Below, piece by piece: positions 2,513 through 25,796 of a DNA stretch of 64,000 bases. The position numbers were made by a program, and so were the translations under genes. This stretch comes from Escherichia coli (lineage in GTDB: Bacteria > Pseudomonadota > Gammaproteobacteria > Enterobacterales > Enterobacteriaceae). Position 1 is the first letter of the stretch. The number at the start of each line of letters is the position of its first letter. The stretch lies in NCBI RefSeq assembly GCF_051903065.1, contig NZ_CP178438.1, one strand, 5' to 3'. Below the pieces are notes generated by a model. The model did no database searches, was not told the origin of the DNA, and saw only the letters and a program-made list of their open reading frames with translations.

Positions 2513-3971
2513 ACTTCACGGAATATTTCGCCACGGTCGCTTTCGCACCATGCGCTAATAAAAACAAGTACGCTTCCGTCACTTTTGCAGTAAACAAGCT
2601 ATTGTCTGGCAAATCATCACCAAAGATCGCCTTAATCGCCAGCAATGACTGGACGCGCGCTTTCCCTTCGGCACTACTTTGTACAGCCTTCTGAATAACA
2701 GGTAACAGTGGGTCACTGATTTCAATCGGATTTCCCTGTTCATCAACACCACCGACATAACGCATCCAACCCGCGACGCCCAGCGCCAGCAGATCGAACT
2801 TGCTGTCATGCGCCAGATGCCAGCGAACAGAATCCAACATCCGCTGTGGCAATTTCTGGCTGCCATCCATCGCAATCTGCCAGGTTCGATGGCGTAACGC
2901 CGGGTTGCTATAGCGTGCAATTAATCGGTTAGCGTAATCTTGCAAATCAACGCCCTGCACTTTCAGCGTCGGCGCTTGTTCCTGCAACATCAAGCCATAC
3001 GCCGCATGACGATAATGTTCATCTTCCATACAGTCATTAATGTGCTGATATCCGGCAAGATAACCCAGATACGCCAGGAATGAATGACTGCCGTTGAGCA
3101 TGCGCAACTTCATCTCTTCATAAGGCAGTACATCGCTAACCAGTTCTGCTCCCGCTTTTTCCCATTCCGGACGTCCGGCAACAAAATTATCTTCGATTAC
3201 CCACTGGCGGAAAGGTTCACAGGCAACGCCAGCAGGATCGCGCACACCGGTAAGTTGTTCGATTTTCGCCAGCGTATCCTCTGTCACTGCGGGCACAATA
3301 CGGTCCACCATTGTTGATGGGAAAGTCACGTTATCTTCGATCCATTGTGCCAGTTTTACATCAACGGCTTGCGCGTAGGAAGTGACAACGTCACGCATAA
3401 CATGACCGTTTTCTGGCATGTTGTCACATGACATGACGGTAAATGCGGGAAGTCCTGCCGCTTTACGGCGAGCCAGCGCCTCAACAATCACCCCTGTTGC
3501 TGTTTTCGGCTGGTGGGGATTTTGCACGTCGGCAACGACCATCGGGTGATCGAGCATTAACTGTCCGGTCGCCGGAGAGTGGAAATACCCTTTTTCGGTG
3601 ATTGTCAGAGAGACAATCGCGATTTGTGGTTCACACATCGCAGCCAACACGGTTTCTAAGCCATCTATCTGTACGTGCAAGGCTTTTTTAACGACGCCAA
3701 CGACGCGAGCCGTCCACGCATCGGCCGACATTTCCGCAACGGTATAAAGATTATCTTGCTGTTGTAAATCGGCAATTTGCTGTTCGCCACCGATTAAGTT
3801 GACCTCATAATATCCCCAGTCACTGAAATGTTCTGTAGCAAGAATATCGGCATACACGCCCTGATGCGCACGGTGAAATGCACCAAAGCCTAAATGAACA
3901 ATTCTTGGGGCCAGGTTATTACGATCATAAACAGGGAGTGTCGCTTTTGCTGATAACAAATTATTTCCCAT
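2511..3971 (-). CDS. ydfI: mannitol dehydrogenase-family oxidoreductase (mannonate/altronate oxidoreductase-like)
   Basis: 486-aa ORF; family assignment from overall similarity to UxuB-type proteins by memory. Confidence 0.85.
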
Positions 3972-20983: not shown

Positions 20984-21015
20984 AAACCCGCTCATCAGCG
21001 GGTTTTCTACTTTTT
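20984..21015. terminator. bidirectional hairpin terminator between cspF and quuQ
   Basis: AAAACCCGCTCATCAGCGGGTTTT stem-loop flanked by T/A runs on both strands. Confidence 0.6.
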
Positions 21016-21111
21016 CTTAACGTCGGGTATACAAAGCCCATCGTTGAAAAAATTTTATCCATATTTTTTGAAAAATGCAAACATCATGTCGCCATCTTCA
21101 GCAAAAATCAT

Positions 21112-21864
21112 TTATCTCGTCACCTTCCTCAATTGCGCTTCCGCGTATGCTTCTTCCTGCCAGCACTTTGTTACCAGTTTACCAATGACGTCCGCATACC
21201 CCTTATACCACTGATAATCGGTCAGGTCTGGTACCAGCTTCTGGACATGACGTCGTGCCAGCGTGGTCGGTAAACGACTAAACCGGTTTCCATTACAACG
21301 CCCACAAATCTTATATACCGGTACGCCATGAAACCGGGTTCTTTTTTCATCCAGAACAATCCCTTTACCCTTACACCCTCTGCACGCTGTGCTGGCTTCG
21401 CCCTTACCATGGCAATGCTGACATAGTTCCTTCACCCATTCTTCCTTGATTACAGATTCCCCGCGTCTGTAGTGTTTCACCACTTCGCGCAATACATTAT
21501 AAAATCCCGTACCTGAACAATGCTCACAGCGAGCCTTACTTGCCGCAGACCTGGAGTAATCAGCAAAGGCAAAACTCACGAGGTAAGGAATAATCTGTAA
21601 CCGGATTTCTTCACTCAATTTGTTCAATGTCGGGTTATCCAGTGCCATCGCGTAATTTAGCAGGCCTTCAATCGCAAACTGAGGGTCCTGAACACCAACT
21701 TTTGCCAGAAATAAGGCCAACCCAAGTGGTGCTTTCGACTGCACCATCCCCTGCGCTGCCATTACATCCGTAATTGTTAAACAACCGGTGCCTGTCGCTG
21801 GAGCGTCATCGCTCAATTTTGGAGATTTTGGGGAGTAATATTTTGGTAAGGCTTCAAGGTTCAT
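21112..21864 (-). CDS. quuQ: lambdoid late-gene antiterminator Q-like
   Basis: ORF 21112-21894; Cys-rich zinc-binding motifs (CxxC); upstream of lysis cassette. Confidence 0.8.
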   Translation of the reverse strand: MNLEALPKYYSPKSPKLSDDAPATGTGCLTITDVMAAQGMVQSKAPLGLALFLAKVGVQDPQFAIEGLLNYAMALDNPTLNKLSEEIRLQIIPYLVSFAFADYSRSAASKARCEHCSGTGFYNVLREVVKHYRRGESVIKEEWVKELCQHCHGKGEASTACRGCKGKGIVLDEKRTRFHGVPVYKICGRCNGNRFSRLPTTLARRHVQKLVPDLTDYQWYKGYADVIGKLVTKCWQEEAYAEAQLRKVTR

Positions 21865-21877
21865 GCTCGTTCTCCAC

Positions 21878-22966
21878 TTACGCCAGTACGCCAATTGCCA
21901 GCGCGCGATCGATAAAACGAAATATCAGCTCCAGTTGGGAGCCATACTTATCTTCAAATGCCACTGTATCCGTATGCAGCTCGTTGTGATGCTTTCTGCA
22001 CAAAGGCAACACAAAGAGATCATGTGCTTTTGTTCCCATTCCGCCCTGCCCGTGACCAATCAGATGATGCGGATCGTCGGCTGGCATACCGCAGCAAGCA
22101 CACGGCTGTGTCTTAACCCAACGTGTGTATTTCTCCTTAACCCAGCGGCGACGTTTAGGCAGCTTCATGAAAGATTCCGGAGACTCTGGATCAACGGTGA
22201 TGCTTACCACCGTCTTTTCCTGTGGTGATTTTTGTTGCTGGTGGGCGTAAGGCAACGGTGCAAGATTTTTTGTGCGTTGTTTCAATATGCTGGTGGCGGT
22301 CTGCTCTCCCGGTACGATGTCGCTTTCGCGGTACACCGAGCAGATTTTTTCCGCTGGTAATCCCAGCGAACGACGCGATACAGCCTCAGGTAGTGCATCC
22401 ACCACCTGATTGCAGACCGCCCACCAGGATAATTCAGCCAAAGATAATTCCCGCTCCTGCGTACCGCTTATTGCGTGACGGATGACGTCAATCACCCATG
22501 CTGTCAGATTTTGTTGAGCAAGCAGCTCCAGTGATTCCGATGTCTGGTCACGCAGTTGGTTGTCGCAGTGCCAGCACAACACCATTGCGCCGGTACCATA
22601 ACGGTGAATGACTGTTTCAGTGTGATGGTAATCGCCATTAGGCCACTGGCAGGATGTAACATGACGTAATAGCCAGTCGGACAATGCGCCAACGCCGCCA
22701 GCAGCACGAATCACCCGTTCGTTACTAAAAAACGGCAGCAATGTTTTGTCTTCCGCCAGCGGCTGGCGAACGGCAGGAACGACTCCGGATGGCAGATTAC
22801 GCATGCTTTTTGGTTCCGGTTCCACCAGCACTCGAGGATTATGAAATATCTGTATGGATTCACGGCCCGGCTTAAGGACCACCAGCCCAAGCTCAGGCAC
22901 CAGAACAGGTCTAAGTAATACCCGCACGTTACCTCCAGATCCGTTGCTGGAAAGTGCGGGACGCAC
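21878..22966 (-). CDS. ydfU: prophage protein YdfU with C-terminal HNH-type motif
   Basis: 362-aa ORF; C-terminal CACCGMPADDPHHLIGHGQGGMGTKAHD...CRKHHNELH. Confidence 0.75.
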   Translation of the reverse strand: MRPALSSNGSGGNVRVLLRPVLVPELGLVVLKPGRESIQIFHNPRVLVEPEPKSMRNLPSGVVPAVRQPLAEDKTLLPFFSNERVIRAAGGVGALSDWLLRHVTSCQWPNGDYHHTETVIHRYGTGAMVLCWHCDNQLRDQTSESLELLAQQNLTAWVIDVIRHAISGTQERELSLAELSWWAVCNQVVDALPEAVSRRSLGLPAEKICSVYRESDIVPGEQTATSILKQRTKNLAPLPYAHQQQKSPQEKTVVSITVDPESPESFMKLPKRRRWVKEKYTRWVKTQPCACCGMPADDPHHLIGHGQGGMGTKAHDLFVLPLCRKHHNELHTDTVAFEDKYGSQLELIFRFIDRALAIGVLA

Positions 22967-23207
22967 GTGGTGGGCGTTCGGAATAAGGCAGCCTGACAGA
23001 GATTATCCAGTGCCGATAGTCGAGACTGAGAGCTTTCTTAACCTCGAACCCGCGCCTGCGGTAAGAATGAATCAGCCATTCGGCCTGTTCTGCAGTGCAT
23101 GGAGGGTGCTGGAACCATTCAGACTTGAATGCGTGAGAATACCGCCCGTGCGTGCAGGCAAGAACGGGCGAATTATCAGAATTGTAATATTTTGCGTTGC
23201 GTGCCAT
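22929..23207 (-). CDS. hypothetical prophage protein (92 aa)
   Basis: ORF with protein-like composition overlapping predicted ydfU start by ~38 nt; no family assigned. Confidence 0.4.
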   Translation of the reverse strand: MARNAKYYNSDNSPVLACTHGRYSHAFKSEWFQHPPCTAEQAEWLIHSYRRRGFEVKKALSLDYRHWIISVRLPYSERPPRASRTFQQRIWR

Positions 23208-23273
23208 CGGTTTTCTCCGGTGGCACGGTGTTACTCAGCGGGAGTTCAGCCCCGCGCAAGATTGTAGATGAGT

Positions 23274-23525
23274 TTATTCTCCTGAAAAAGCAGAAAAGCC
23301 AGCTTTTATTCCGATCTCTTTCAATGCCTGTAATGAAGTGACAAACTCACCTTCGCGCAAGATAAATCCGTCCGTGACCCGAGCATCCACAAAATTAATT
23401 AACGCAGCCCCATTCTTTCGCAAACACATAATGCGGTAATGACTAACAAGATTTCCATTTTCAACGCACACAGCATAGAGGCCATCTTCACAAAAAATTT
23501 TACGCAGTTCTTCGATGTTCATCAT
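23274..23525 (-). CDS. rem: prophage protein Rem
   Basis: 83-aa ORF MMNIEELRKIFCEDGLYAVCVENGN... Confidence 0.8.
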   Translation of the reverse strand: MMNIEELRKIFCEDGLYAVCVENGNLVSHYRIMCLRKNGAALINFVDARVTDGFILREGEFVTSLQALKEIGIKAGFSAFSGE

Positions 23526-23640
23526 CAGAATCCTTCCGGATAATTAGCTCTCCCCTTTAAGGGACCATCCCTCTTATCCCTGCGCGCTACTTAAGTATTT
23601 TTGATTCTATTCCGGCACCGTCCAGAACTTCAAACGCGTT

Positions 23641-23673
23641 GAAAATAAAAACAAAAACCCGCCGAAGCGGGTT
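23641..23673 (-). terminator. Rho-independent terminator downstream of relBE-hokD
   Basis: Stem AACCCGCTTCGGCGGGTT followed by T-rich run on minus strand. Confidence 0.65.
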
Positions 23674-23741
23674 AAGTGCGGGTGCGTTGAGGATGCCTGC
23701 CACATCAGAGGTGGCGAGGGATTTCTCCCCCGCCGGGTCTC

Positions 23742-23897
23742 TTACTCCTCAGGTTCGTAAGCTGTGAAGACAGCGACCTCCGTCTGGCCGGTTCGGATTC
23801 GTACCTCGCAGAGGTCTTTCCTCGTTACCAGTGCCGTCACTATGACGGTTAAACAGATGACGATCAGGGCGATTAACATCGCCTTTTGCTGCTTCAT
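23742..23897 (-). CDS. hokD: Hok-family small membrane toxin (RelF)
   Basis: Hand translation: MKQQKAMLIALIVICLTVIVTALVTRKDLCEVRIRTGQTEVAVFTAYEPEE (51 aa); not in supplied ORF list. Confidence 0.85.
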   Translation of the reverse strand: MKQQKAMLIALIVICLTVIVTALVTRKDLCEVRIRTGQTEVAVFTAYEPEE

Positions 23898-23968
23898 AGC
23901 CTGCTTCTCCTGTCAACGCAAAGCAGAAGTGTCACCTTCGGTGCGAAACAGAGATGTCATGCTTTGGT

Positions 23969-24256
23969 TCAGAGAATGCGTTTGACCGCCTCGCTATATA
24001 CTTCCGAGCGTTCTCTTTTCCCAACAGAAATCACGAAAACGACAACTTTCTCGTCTATAACCTGGTATACAAGGCGATAGCCTGAAGACCGGAGCTTAAT
24101 CTTGTAACAATCAGGCATACCACGGAGCTTGTTTGCTTCAATCCGGGGTGACTCAAGTACTTCAACCAGCTTCTTTTTCAACTGTTCACGTACCGTCGAG
24201 CCCAGCTTTCGCCATTCCTTTAGTGCCCGCTCGTCAAAATCCAGAAAATACGCCAT
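23969..24256 (-). CDS. relE: RelE mRNA interferase toxin
   Basis: 95-aa ORF MAYFLDFDERALKEWRKLGSTVREQLKKKL... Confidence 0.9.
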   Translation of the reverse strand: MAYFLDFDERALKEWRKLGSTVREQLKKKLVEVLESPRIEANKLRGMPDCYKIKLRSSGYRLVYQVIDEKVVVFVISVGKRERSEVYSEAVKRIL

Positions 24257-24495
24257 CAGAGTTCATCCAGCGTCACACGTACTGGCTTAGGATTACGAAG
24301 CCGTTCTTTCACTATCTCCACAAGTTCAGCATCTTCATCACTCAGGAGTGTCTGTTTGAACGGCAAGCGTTCATTGTCAGCGATATACTCGAGCATGAGA
24401 CGAAGCGCTTCAGAAGGAGTTACACCCATTTTTTCAAGCGCGGCGTAAGAACGCGCTTTAAGTTCATCGTCAATACGCAGGTTAATGCTACCCAT
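24256..24495 (-). CDS. relB: RelB antitoxin
   Basis: 79-aa ORF MGSINLRIDDELKARSYA...; overlaps relE start. Confidence 0.9.
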   Translation of the reverse strand: MGSINLRIDDELKARSYAALEKMGVTPSEALRLMLEYIADNERLPFKQTLLSDEDAELVEIVKERLRNPKPVRVTLDEL

Positions 24496-24504
24496 GTCTT
24501 ACAC

Positions 24505-24535
24505 CTCTTGTAATTACAAATGTCATTACAAGTAT
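24505..24535. promoter_or_regulatory. relBE operator-like inverted repeats
   Basis: CTTGTAATTACAAATGTCATTACAAG: palindromic TTGTAAT/ATTACAA elements just upstream of relB. Confidence 0.55.
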
Positions 24536-24825
24536 CGCACTACAACATGCTTAGGGCAAGTCACGAAGGAAGTCAGAAAGTAGTCGTAAGAACGGTGATC
24601 ACTGTCCGCTTTGTGCCAGGAGCAGCCATTGCTAAGTCCATCCTGTATTGTGCAGGTCAGCTCGTTTTTAAAGAGTCCGGCCATCATCTTACTGGTACAG
24701 ACACCATATACTTTGTGACGGTCAGGCTACATATGCACAACTCAACTTATTCATCTATTTTTTGCTTTAGCATGTCAGTGTTGCTTTCTCGTCGGCGGGT
24801 GAGCGGTGACCTGACCTGTCGATAA
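24520..24825 (+). CDS. ydfV: prophage protein YdfV
   Basis: 101-aa ORF divergent from relB. Confidence 0.6.
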   Translation: MSLQVSHYNMLRASHEGSQKVVVRTVITVRFVPGAAIAKSILYCAGQLVFKESGHHLTGTDTIYFVTVRLHMHNSTYSSIFCFSMSVLLSRRRVSGDLTCR

Positions 24826-24977
24826 AGGAACGTAACACGTTTTATGCAACACCCGCATGCGGCAGAAAATTATTGCCGAACGTTTACCCCTGTCAACAAG
24901 CTTTACTTTCTGAGGCGCGCCAGCCCGCGAGGAAAACAATCTGAACATCAAACAATTAATGACACAAGAAATACGAT

Positions 24978-25004
24978 TAAAGATTTTTTTGTACATGCCG
25001 ATAG
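24978..25004 (+). promoter_or_regulatory. sigma-28 (FliA) type promoter upstream of flxA
   Basis: TAAAGATT-N11-GCCGATAG versus consensus TAAAGTTT-N11-GCCGATAA, 24 bp upstream of flxA ATG. Confidence 0.7.
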
Positions 25005-25027
25005 TGCTTTTTTAAAAGGAGAAATCT

Positions 25028-25360
25028 ATGTCTGTCACAATTCAGGGAAATACCTCAACCGTTATTTCAAACAACTCCGCCCCGGAAGGAACATCAGAAA
25101 TAGCCAAAATCACAAGACAAATTCAGGTGCTGACTGAAAAGCTTGGGAAAATCTCATCGGAAGAGGGGATGACGACACAGCAGAAAAAAGAAATGGCTGC
25201 ATTGGTACAGAAGCAAATTGAAAGCCTCTGGGCTCAACTGGAGCAGTTGTTAAGGCAGCAGGCAGAGAAAAAGAATGAAGACGCGACAGTTCAGCCTGAT
25301 AAAAAAGAAGAGAAAAAAGACGATACAAATACCGCTGGCACCATTGATATTTACGTCTAA
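25028..25360 (+). CDS. flxA: FliA-regulated protein FlxA
   Basis: 110-aa ORF MSVTIQGNTSTVISNNSAPEGTSEIAKITRQIQ... Confidence 0.85.
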   Translation: MSVTIQGNTSTVISNNSAPEGTSEIAKITRQIQVLTEKLGKISSEEGMTTQQKKEMAALVQKQIESLWAQLEQLLRQQAEKKNEDATVQPDKKEEKKDDTNTAGTIDIYV

Positions 25361-25374
25361 GTGACAGCCGTATT

Positions 25375-25397
25375 GTGGCCCTCATCGGGCCACTTTT
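25375..25397 (+). terminator. Rho-independent terminator after flxA
   Basis: GTGGCCC-TCATC-GGGCCAC followed by TTTT. Confidence 0.7.
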
Positions 25398-25796
25398 CGC
25401 CATCAGCCTTTTCTTTAAAGACATATTATCTTTGTATCATTTCTGATAGTTAACATTACAAGATATAAGTAATGGACGCACTCCCAATTAGTCTATTTAA
25501 ATCGCCACGAGTTTAACTGACAACCCATGATCAATTATGAATTGCAACTATTTCTGTAGTCACTTTTGTGGGGACAGTCCACAAAACTGCCAACTTCCGC
25601 TTCTTGCTCTTAGCGGACATTAGCATAGGCTATTTACCATAACGCCTCATTACGCACACCGCCCAGACTGACTCAGCGCGTTTCTGGCATATCCCCGGTA
25701 AAACAAGTAACAAACCACCCGAAAATGAACACCAGAAACGCGACTTAAGAATCTACCCTATGAATGGATATGCACTCAACCGAATCGATCTTGGTT

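Follow-up and report, generated by a model that had tools for sequence, protein, structure and literature searches.

A probable small phage-family gene between rem and ydfU in the cryptic prophage Qin, left out of the curated Escherichia coli K-12 annotation

Introduction

In phage λ, the small ORFs coding for NinD, NinE, NinF, and NinH lie between the replication genes and Q, in an arrangement with operon-style coupling. Other temperate phages of Enterobacterales carry members of phrog_1212, a PHROG family without assigned function whose proteins are ~66 aa long and basic and which is found in these phages only. The nucleases encoded in such operons are better described. DUF968 proteins, including YdfU, were classed with YbcO as His-Me finger nucleases (PMC5714182), and another paper describes DUF968 proteins as fusions of an Orf/NinB-like DNA-binding domain with an HNH nuclease (PMC4118853).

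The E. coli K-12 ydfU gene has also been studied for its transcription. A qRT-PCR study, in which the reverse primer for ydfU was placed 1200 nt from the transcription start site, counted the terminator preceding ydfU among the strongest Rho-dependent ones (PMC9160355). In the table of array and RNA-seq data compiled in that study for rho or nusG mutants or bicyclomycin treatment, ydfU was up by 1.4 to 2.8 (fold-change as tabulated), while rem was essentially unchanged under the same conditions (-0.5 to 0.5) (PMC9160355).

Here we analyzed a 92-codon ORF located between rem and ydfU in a 64,000-nt stretch of E. coli DNA (hereafter, the window). The initial annotation of the window, made from the sequence alone, had left this ORF unassigned and overlapping the predicted start of ydfU, and had proposed that either ydfU starts further downstream or the ORF is an unannotated gene.

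Results

A 92-codon ORF in the Qin prophage

The ORF at 22929..23207 has exactly the translation first quoted for it, and its strand, which the initial annotation did not give, is minus. A 1-kb query around it is 100% identical to positions 1,643,977-1,644,977 of E. coli K-12 MG1655 (NC_000913.3), and the locus is the cryptic prophage Qin of that strain (MG1655 coordinate = window coordinate + 1,621,377). The curated minus-strand gene order is relB-relE-hokD-rem-ydfU-ydfT, with ydfT coding for a Q-like antiterminator. The features used below are as follows, with positions in the window:

21878..22927, minus strand: ydfU (b1560), 349 aa, DUF968 His-Me/HNH nuclease, GTG start at 22927-22925
22854..23267, plus strand: 137-aa antisense shadow ORF, read as non-coding (pN/pS 2.48 in the antisense frame)
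22929..23207, minus strand: the 92-codon ORF, ATG at 23207-23205 and TAA at 22931-22929, identical to WP_012304870.1 and a phrog_1212 member
22932..22936, minus strand: Shine-Dalgarno sequence of ydfU, GGAGG, made by the last two codons of the ORF (TGG AGG)
22932..22982, minus strand: conserved basic tail PRxSRTFQQRIWR, codons 76-92, pN/pS 0.16, W91 nearly invariant
22964..22966, minus strand: upstream in-frame GTG, the source of a spurious 362-aa ydfU; the start codon is not conserved
22983..23126, minus strand: conserved core, codons 28-75, with predicted β1 (28-33), α1 (39-52), β2 (56-60), and β3 (67-75)
23070..23302, minus strand: C-rich, G-poor stretch in the mRNA sense, a candidate Rho-utilization (rut) site from base composition
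23127..23207, minus strand: N-terminal extension, codons 1-27, E. coli lineage-specific, predicted to be disordered and weakly constrained
23200..23227, minus strand: predicted RNA hairpin of 7+3 bp (prediction only)
23215..23218, minus strand: Shine-Dalgarno sequence of the ORF, GGAG, read directly, 7 nt upstream of the ATG
23274..23525, minus strand: rem (b1561), the upstream neighbor, AT-rich (GC 0.405) and replaced in related prophages

The proposal that the ORF is unannotated is right for NC_000913.3, which has zero annotated features between ydfU and rem, but not for the sequence databases. In strain ATCC 8739, PGAP annotates the identical 279-nt CDS as a 'hypothetical protein' (WP_012304870.1), and the RefSeq E. 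coli records listed, including that of the K-12 derivative MC4100, also show a PGAP 'hypothetical protein' between ydfU and rem. The exact ORF protein is present on at least 1000 contigs under the labels 'hypothetical protein' or 'Prophage protein' (UniRef A0A094VVT9), and megablast with the 1-kb region gave matches in 4426 of 5426 complete E. coli genomes. Searches of the literature for WP_012304870.1 and for the genome coordinate returned nothing relevant. The protein is thus known as an entity, being catalogued by PGAP and in phrog_1212, and what is left is its omission from the MG1655 annotation.

Selection on the reading frame

The length of the ORF is little evidence in itself because the same 4 kb contains many ORFs of similar size (~90-140 aa) on both strands, including the 137-aa antisense ORF; it is its conservation that raises the ORF above chance. 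We compared the sequences from 80 viral contigs with homologs at 85-100% protein identity, plus L001, L002, and L005, which together gave 27 distinct DNA variants. A frame that is not conserved had been named as the finding that would speak against a gene; instead, the 92-codon frame is intact in 27/27 variants, with zero indels. Variable sites are distributed 22/24/51 over the three codon positions, the third one dominating. The pooled pN/pS is 0.23 in the ORF frame versus 2.48 in the antisense 137-aa frame, and the remaining four reading frames contain stop codons. By region, codons 2-27 have a pN/pS of 1.05 among the close variants, codons 28-75 one of 0.12, and codons 76-92 one of 0.16; the comparison of K-12 with L005, a 76%-identical homolog, gives 0.66, 0.16, and 0.17 for the same three regions. 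Purifying selection in the core and tail and the retention of the frame together argue, at the level of sequence comparison, that the ORF is protein-coding, with its C-terminal two-thirds strongly constrained and its N-terminal leader weakly so. The supplements of Ribo-seq and N-terminomics papers, searched for translation in K-12, had no entry at the ORF locus.

The ORF could be taken for a chance ORF or for the shadow of the plus-strand 137-aa ORF, as ORFs of ~90-140 aa are common on both strands here and as the curated K-12 annotation leaves it out. This is scarcely credible in view of the pN/pS contrast with the antisense frame, the conservation of the frame in every variant, and the homologs found in other genera at 30-50% identity, and we consider it refuted as far as comparative data can do so.

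The overlap with ydfU stands only for the mechanically longest ydfU ORF, which starts at the GTG at 22966, codes for 362 aa, and spans the last 38 nt of the 92-codon ORF. It disappears with the curated 349-aa ydfU, the GTG of which, at 22927, comes one base after the TAA of the ORF. The proposal that ydfU starts further downstream was borne out: a GGAGG (22936-22932) lies 4 nt upstream of the curated GTG, and the alignments of phrog_96 (profile 1-334) and phrog_11007 (profile 2-133) begin at residues 1-2 of the 349-aa YdfU, that of phrog_96 at residue 1. Conservation of the N-terminus, the suggested way of checking this start, agrees, as the upstream codon is GTG in only 9 of the 27 variants (GTC in 16 and GCC in 2), and the 12 extension codons have a pN (0.080) above their pS (0.053). 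The same observations bear on the idea, suggested by the 38-nt overlap of the 362-aa form, that the ORF belongs to ydfU, as the 5′ portion of a longer or frameshifted gene. Its probability is practically nil, as the two reading frames differ, the upstream GTG is missing in 18/27 variants, both profiles begin with the 349-aa form, the extension codons are not conserved at the amino-acid level (pN above pS), and a free-standing 66-aa version of the gene occurs before RusA, NinG, and other genes. An extension of the YdfU N-terminus across the ORF was rejected on the basis of the different frame, the non-conserved GTG, and the start of phrog_96.

Relatives in enterobacterial phages

The ORF matches phrog_1212 with E=1.7e-35 (121.9 bits), its residues 27-92 covering positions 1-66 of the 66-position profile, and the window contains a single phrog_1212 copy. 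An exhaustive phmmer search of 1.8 billion representatives recovered 60 clusters at E<=1e-3. Most of the distant members are 64-69 aa long and align from their residue 2 onward with ORF residues 28-92; reciprocally, 64-69-aa members from other genera match window positions 22932-23129 at E 1e-11 to 1e-17. By tblastn, the family was found in 59 phage genomes, including mEp460, Tritos, PPompW/Stx2a phages, Gifsy-2, mEp237, PY54, and SPN3UB, as well as Klebsiella, Edwardsiella, Hafnia, and Erwinia phages. In a profile search with an alignment of the distant members, all entries recovered were labeled 'hypothetical protein' and came from Enterobacterales (Cronobacter, Kluyvera, Citrobacter, Salmonella, Pantoea, Yersinia, Leclercia, and Plesiomonas), and informative domain fusions were absent. 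The homology search that had been suggested as a check thus gave homologs in Salmonella, Klebsiella, Yersinia, Citrobacter, Cronobacter, and other phages. Together with the lack of an NC_000913.3 annotation, the phrog_1212 match, and the purifying selection, these homologs in other genera uphold the reading of the ORF as a gene that the reference annotation does not have.

The family consensus is MKKxWFxHxxCTxEQAxELxxRYRxRGxxxxKSLSxDxxxWxVSAxLPESxxxPRxxRxxQQRIWR. In the family alignment, Y49 is invariant and F32, L45, L60, D63, L73, P74, and W91 are conserved in at least 90% of the sequences. In the E. coli type, Phe27 stands where the ancestral Met was. This type cannot do without the upstream ATG and the 26-residue leader because no in-frame ATG, GTG, or TTG is found near residue 27, and the ancestral start codon was apparently lost. 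Searches of the ORF against Pfam (no match at E<=1), NCBIfam, and PADLOC gave nothing, and a sequence profile search of the PDB gave only noise (E>=0.1).

One phage record (ON470583.1) carries the label 'toxin to Rem'. We found no support for a toxin-antitoxin pair with Rem, as the ORF has no Pfam, NCBIfam, or PADLOC match, and rem is the upstream gene in the Qin type only, its place being taken elsewhere by DUF1367, RdgC, a LexA-like gene, or others. The phrase had no support in the literature searched.

AlphaFold2, run with a 36-sequence alignment as input, gave a model with a mean pLDDT of 78 and values above 90 for residues 30-75. The predicted core consists of β1 (28-33), α1 (39-52), β2 (56-60), and β3 (67-75), whereas the leader is predicted to be disordered (pLDDT ~50) and the tail is modeled at intermediate confidence. 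The core is basic across the family (median pI 9.6, net charge ~ +4); by itself, a basic pI does little to support nucleic-acid binding. With this model, Foldseek found nothing significant in the PDB (E>=0.2) and, in BFVD, only a family member, N15 Orf QD1. R3H domains were among the weak Foldseek matches of the core. An R3H-like domain, to be recognized by a significant fold match together with the R-x3-H motif, was not supported.

Gene neighborhood

In all lineages examined, the family gene is co-oriented with the early-right (nin) operon. The arrangements are listed below, with X for the phrog_1212 gene:

Gifsy-2: 200-aa hypothetical protein STM1020 – X – NinG – … – Q
P0137 type: DinI – DUF1367 – X – RusA – antiterminator
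P0135 type: DinI – hypothetical protein – X – RusA – DUF968 – Q
P0141: LexA-like – X – DUF968
P0150: NinB – … – X – 122-aa unknown – NinG – Q
N15/PY54-like: RdgC – X – Rv2179c-like exonuclease or ORF48 – … – Lar – Dam
Other E. coli prophages: X – DUF968 – RusA – Q

Across 194 loci, which are phylogenetically redundant and represent ~6-8 independent contexts, the next downstream gene codes for DUF968 (80), RusA type 1 (77), RusA type 2 (19), an Rv2179c-like exonuclease (6), a YbcO-like His-Me nuclease (5), or one of a few others; NinG also occurs. The phrog_1212 gene is thus consistently found immediately 5′ of a gene for a DNA-branch or DNA-end nuclease across lineages, PY54 and the P0150 lineage excepted, where the adjacent downstream gene is not a recognizable nuclease. 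The constant placement before a nuclease could simply follow from the way gene order is conserved in lambdoid nin regions.

The junction with the downstream gene has the same layout in all lineages: the last two codons (Trp followed by Arg, Gly, Glu, or Lys), the stop codon, 1-3 nt, and the start of the next gene. The last two codons occur as TGGAGG, TGGGAG, TGGGGG, TGGAGA, or TGGAAA. Because a Shine-Dalgarno sequence in the last codons and a 1-3 nt spacing are found everywhere, the 3′ end of the ORF doubles as the ribosome-binding site of the downstream gene. By this layout, the Qin ORF is translationally coupled to ydfU, with its own last codons providing the GGAGG of ydfU and a gap of one base separating the two genes. 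At the other end, the match to the 1-kb query stops at window position 23224, 17 nt upstream of the ORF ATG, in many E. coli genomes, and the GC content is 0.53 for the ORF and 0.52 for ydfU versus 0.405 for rem. Based on this match boundary and the shared GC content, the ORF and ydfU act as one mosaic module, and rem is a replaceable neighbor.

This junction also raises the question of whether the ORF acts in cis as a leader, its translation bringing ribosomes to the ydfU GTG and shielding a Rho-loading site while the peptide itself has no function. The use of the last codons as the downstream Shine-Dalgarno sequence, with 1-3 nt between the stop codon and the next start throughout the lineages, fits this idea, as do the C-rich and G-poor mRNA, the strong Rho-dependent terminator reported upstream of ydfU, and the near-neutral evolution of the N-terminal 26 codons. 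However, selection strongly preserves the amino-acid sequence of the core and tail (pN/pS 0.12-0.16). The protein can still be recognized in different genera at 30-50% identity, its hydrophobic pattern is conserved, and its fold is predicted with confidence. As amino-acid constraint and fold would not be conserved in a pure leader, this is very unlikely to be the sole role of the ORF. Coupling and a trans-acting product can coexist.

The ORF could also encode a host-directed or anti-defense protein, such as one inhibiting a host nuclease or restriction system, that merely resides in the nin operon without a link to the adjacent nuclease. Many small proteins of early phage operons behave this way, N15/PY54-like phages carry the gene near Lar (restriction alleviation) and Dam, no partner-specific co-variation was shown, and the downstream gene is not always a nuclease. 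We see this as a real but minor possibility, as no match to PADLOC models or known anti-defense families was obtained, by its GC content and mosaic boundaries the ORF goes with ydfU and does not look like an independent moron, and no promoter or terminator of its own was found beyond chance expectation.

RNA features

On the mRNA-sense strand, the C/G ratio is 1.2-1.65 over the rem-ORF spacer and the ORF versus ~0.5 across rem. By its composition, this C-rich stretch is a candidate for the rut site of the Rho-dependent terminator reported upstream of ydfU. A predicted hairpin (23200-23227; 91-nt fold, z = -3.1) pairs part of the Shine-Dalgarno sequence of the ORF and the UG of its AUG, and one variant keeps a hairpin pair through a change from A-U to G-U. 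Over the 45 nt preceding the ATG, 75/81 loci have the same sequence, and a stronger GGAGG is present in 4 loci. A search of Rfam over 21000-25500 returned nothing, and scans for promoter and terminator consensus sequences gave counts equal to the shuffled expectation, with no promoter or terminator proper to the ORF beyond chance. With a hairpin modeled over its ribosome-binding site and the reported Rho-dependent terminator probably acting on the region, the ORF is probably poorly expressed in K-12. In this strain, the RNA of the ORF may be the loading place for Rho, with ydfU and ydfT silenced as a result.

Discussion

The best joint explanation of these data, which includes a guess at function that we hold separately and with less confidence, is that the ORF truly codes for a protein, belongs to the nin (early-right) operon of Qin, and was left out of the curated MG1655 annotation; we give this reading a probability of roughly 0.8. 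The omission is minor but genuine, and it concerns the reference annotation of the bacterial genome that has been studied most. Without a b-number, the ORF is invisible to K-12 knockout collections, to arrays, and to most omics pipelines. The analysis also settles the start of ydfU and offers a concrete candidate region for the strong Rho-dependent terminator upstream of this gene. Beyond K-12, it points to an uncharacterized family of small proteins that consistently precede the recombination nucleases of enterobacterial temperate phages.

What the product does can only be proposed tentatively. It is possible, at well below even odds, that it is a small nucleic-acid-binding accessory factor of the phage recombination or junction-processing module, which would act in trans and be poorly expressed in K-12. 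Because the downstream nuclease is swapped between unrelated families, such a product would act on the DNA or on the process, and not on one specific nuclease. A more specific version seems rather unlikely to us: phrog_1212 would be a dedicated accessory of lambdoid recombination and junction resolution, binding DNA branches or regulating the nuclease, that stays constant while the nuclease (RusA, Rap/NinG, DUF968, or YbcO-like His-Me) changes, and in K-12 the translation of the ORF would gate the Rho-dependent silencing of ydfU.

The described proteins that resemble this one do so to different degrees. R3H and similar small βαββ(α) nucleic-acid-binding modules have the secondary-structure order, the small size, and the basic charge of the ORF core. 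The closest relatives are the phrog_1212 members of other phages, such as Gifsy-2 STM1021.1n, PY54 ORF47, and N15 'Orf QD1', which have the same nin or early-right place, the same orientation, and the same tight coupling as the ORF. The 64-69-aa members differ from the E. coli Qin-type ORF in that they do not have its 26-residue N-terminal leader. The Gifsy-2 homolog, directly before NinG, occupies the slot that NinF has in λ. However, although the ORF shares its niche with λ NinD, NinE, NinF, and NinH, the two groups are unrelated in sequence, with hhalign probabilities of 0.05-0.3% and no Pfam match, so that the likeness to the λ genes is one of place and operon-style coupling.

Transcription of rem and the 92-codon gene

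The upstream neighbour of the 92-codon gene, rem (23274..23525, minus strand), matches phrog_340 (E=4e-21), a family of unknown function. In related prophages other genes take the place of rem, which is also far more AT-rich than the adjoining genes (GC 0.405); rem thus behaves like a moron. Its match to SocB_toxin (E=0.01) scored 14.9 bits where the cut-off is 210, and was dismissed as noise. Two features lie between hokD and rem:

23656..23673, minus strand: strong hairpin resembling an intrinsic terminator, AACCCGCTTCGGCGGGTT with a T-run after it, just downstream of hokD
23633..23604, minus strand: weak sigma-70-like match, after this hairpin and before rem

Given these sequence signals, rem and the 92-codon gene may form their own transcription unit, apart from relBE-hokD. 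Further downstream, a strong Rho-dependent terminator was reported upstream of ydfU, which is de-repressed when Rho/NusG is impaired, whereas rem is unaffected (table, PMC9160355). By base composition, two C-rich, G-poor stretches of the mRNA sense are candidate rut sites for this terminator:

23070..23302, minus strand: C/G up to 1.65
22185..22340, minus strand: C/G up to 2.1

The spacer between rem and the 92-codon gene contains two predicted RNA hairpins:

23200..23227, minus strand: predicted hairpin
23234..23260, minus strand: predicted hairpin

The 3' one is predicted to pair two G's of the gene's Shine-Dalgarno sequence and the UG of its AUG (z=-3.1 for a 91-nt fold). One natural variant retains a stem pair through an A-U to G-U change. 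In divergent prophages, the sequence upstream of the homologous gene differs from that of K-12, which limits comparison of the hairpin with theirs.

Overlapping frames, labels and fusions

One open reading frame lies exactly antisense to the 92-codon gene, with matching codon registers:

22854..23267, plus strand: 137-aa open reading frame

Since its pN/pS is 2.48, we rejected it as a gene and regard it as a shadow frame. In a single GenBank phage record (ON470583.1, related-prophage locus L005), the homologue of the 92-codon gene (3001-3279) is labelled "toxin to Rem" and an overlapping antisense 37-aa frame "mobile element protein"; the present analysis found nothing to support either label.

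In some E. coli genomes, residues 1-53 of the 92-codon gene product are joined to C-terminal residues of YdfT or YdfU (proteins P0096 and P0097), evidently through internal deletions within the segment running from this gene to ydfU or ydfT. In protein P0152, a phrog_1212 family member is fused to a YbcO-like nuclease, probably by frameshift.

Comparison with related prophages

Related prophages have a rusA gene (L005, 4337-4702; L197, 1392-1772) that separates the DUF968 gene from the gene for the Q-like antiterminator. In contrast, the K-12 Qin prophage lacks rusA, and ydfT directly follows the DUF968 gene ydfU at the junction 21864..21878.
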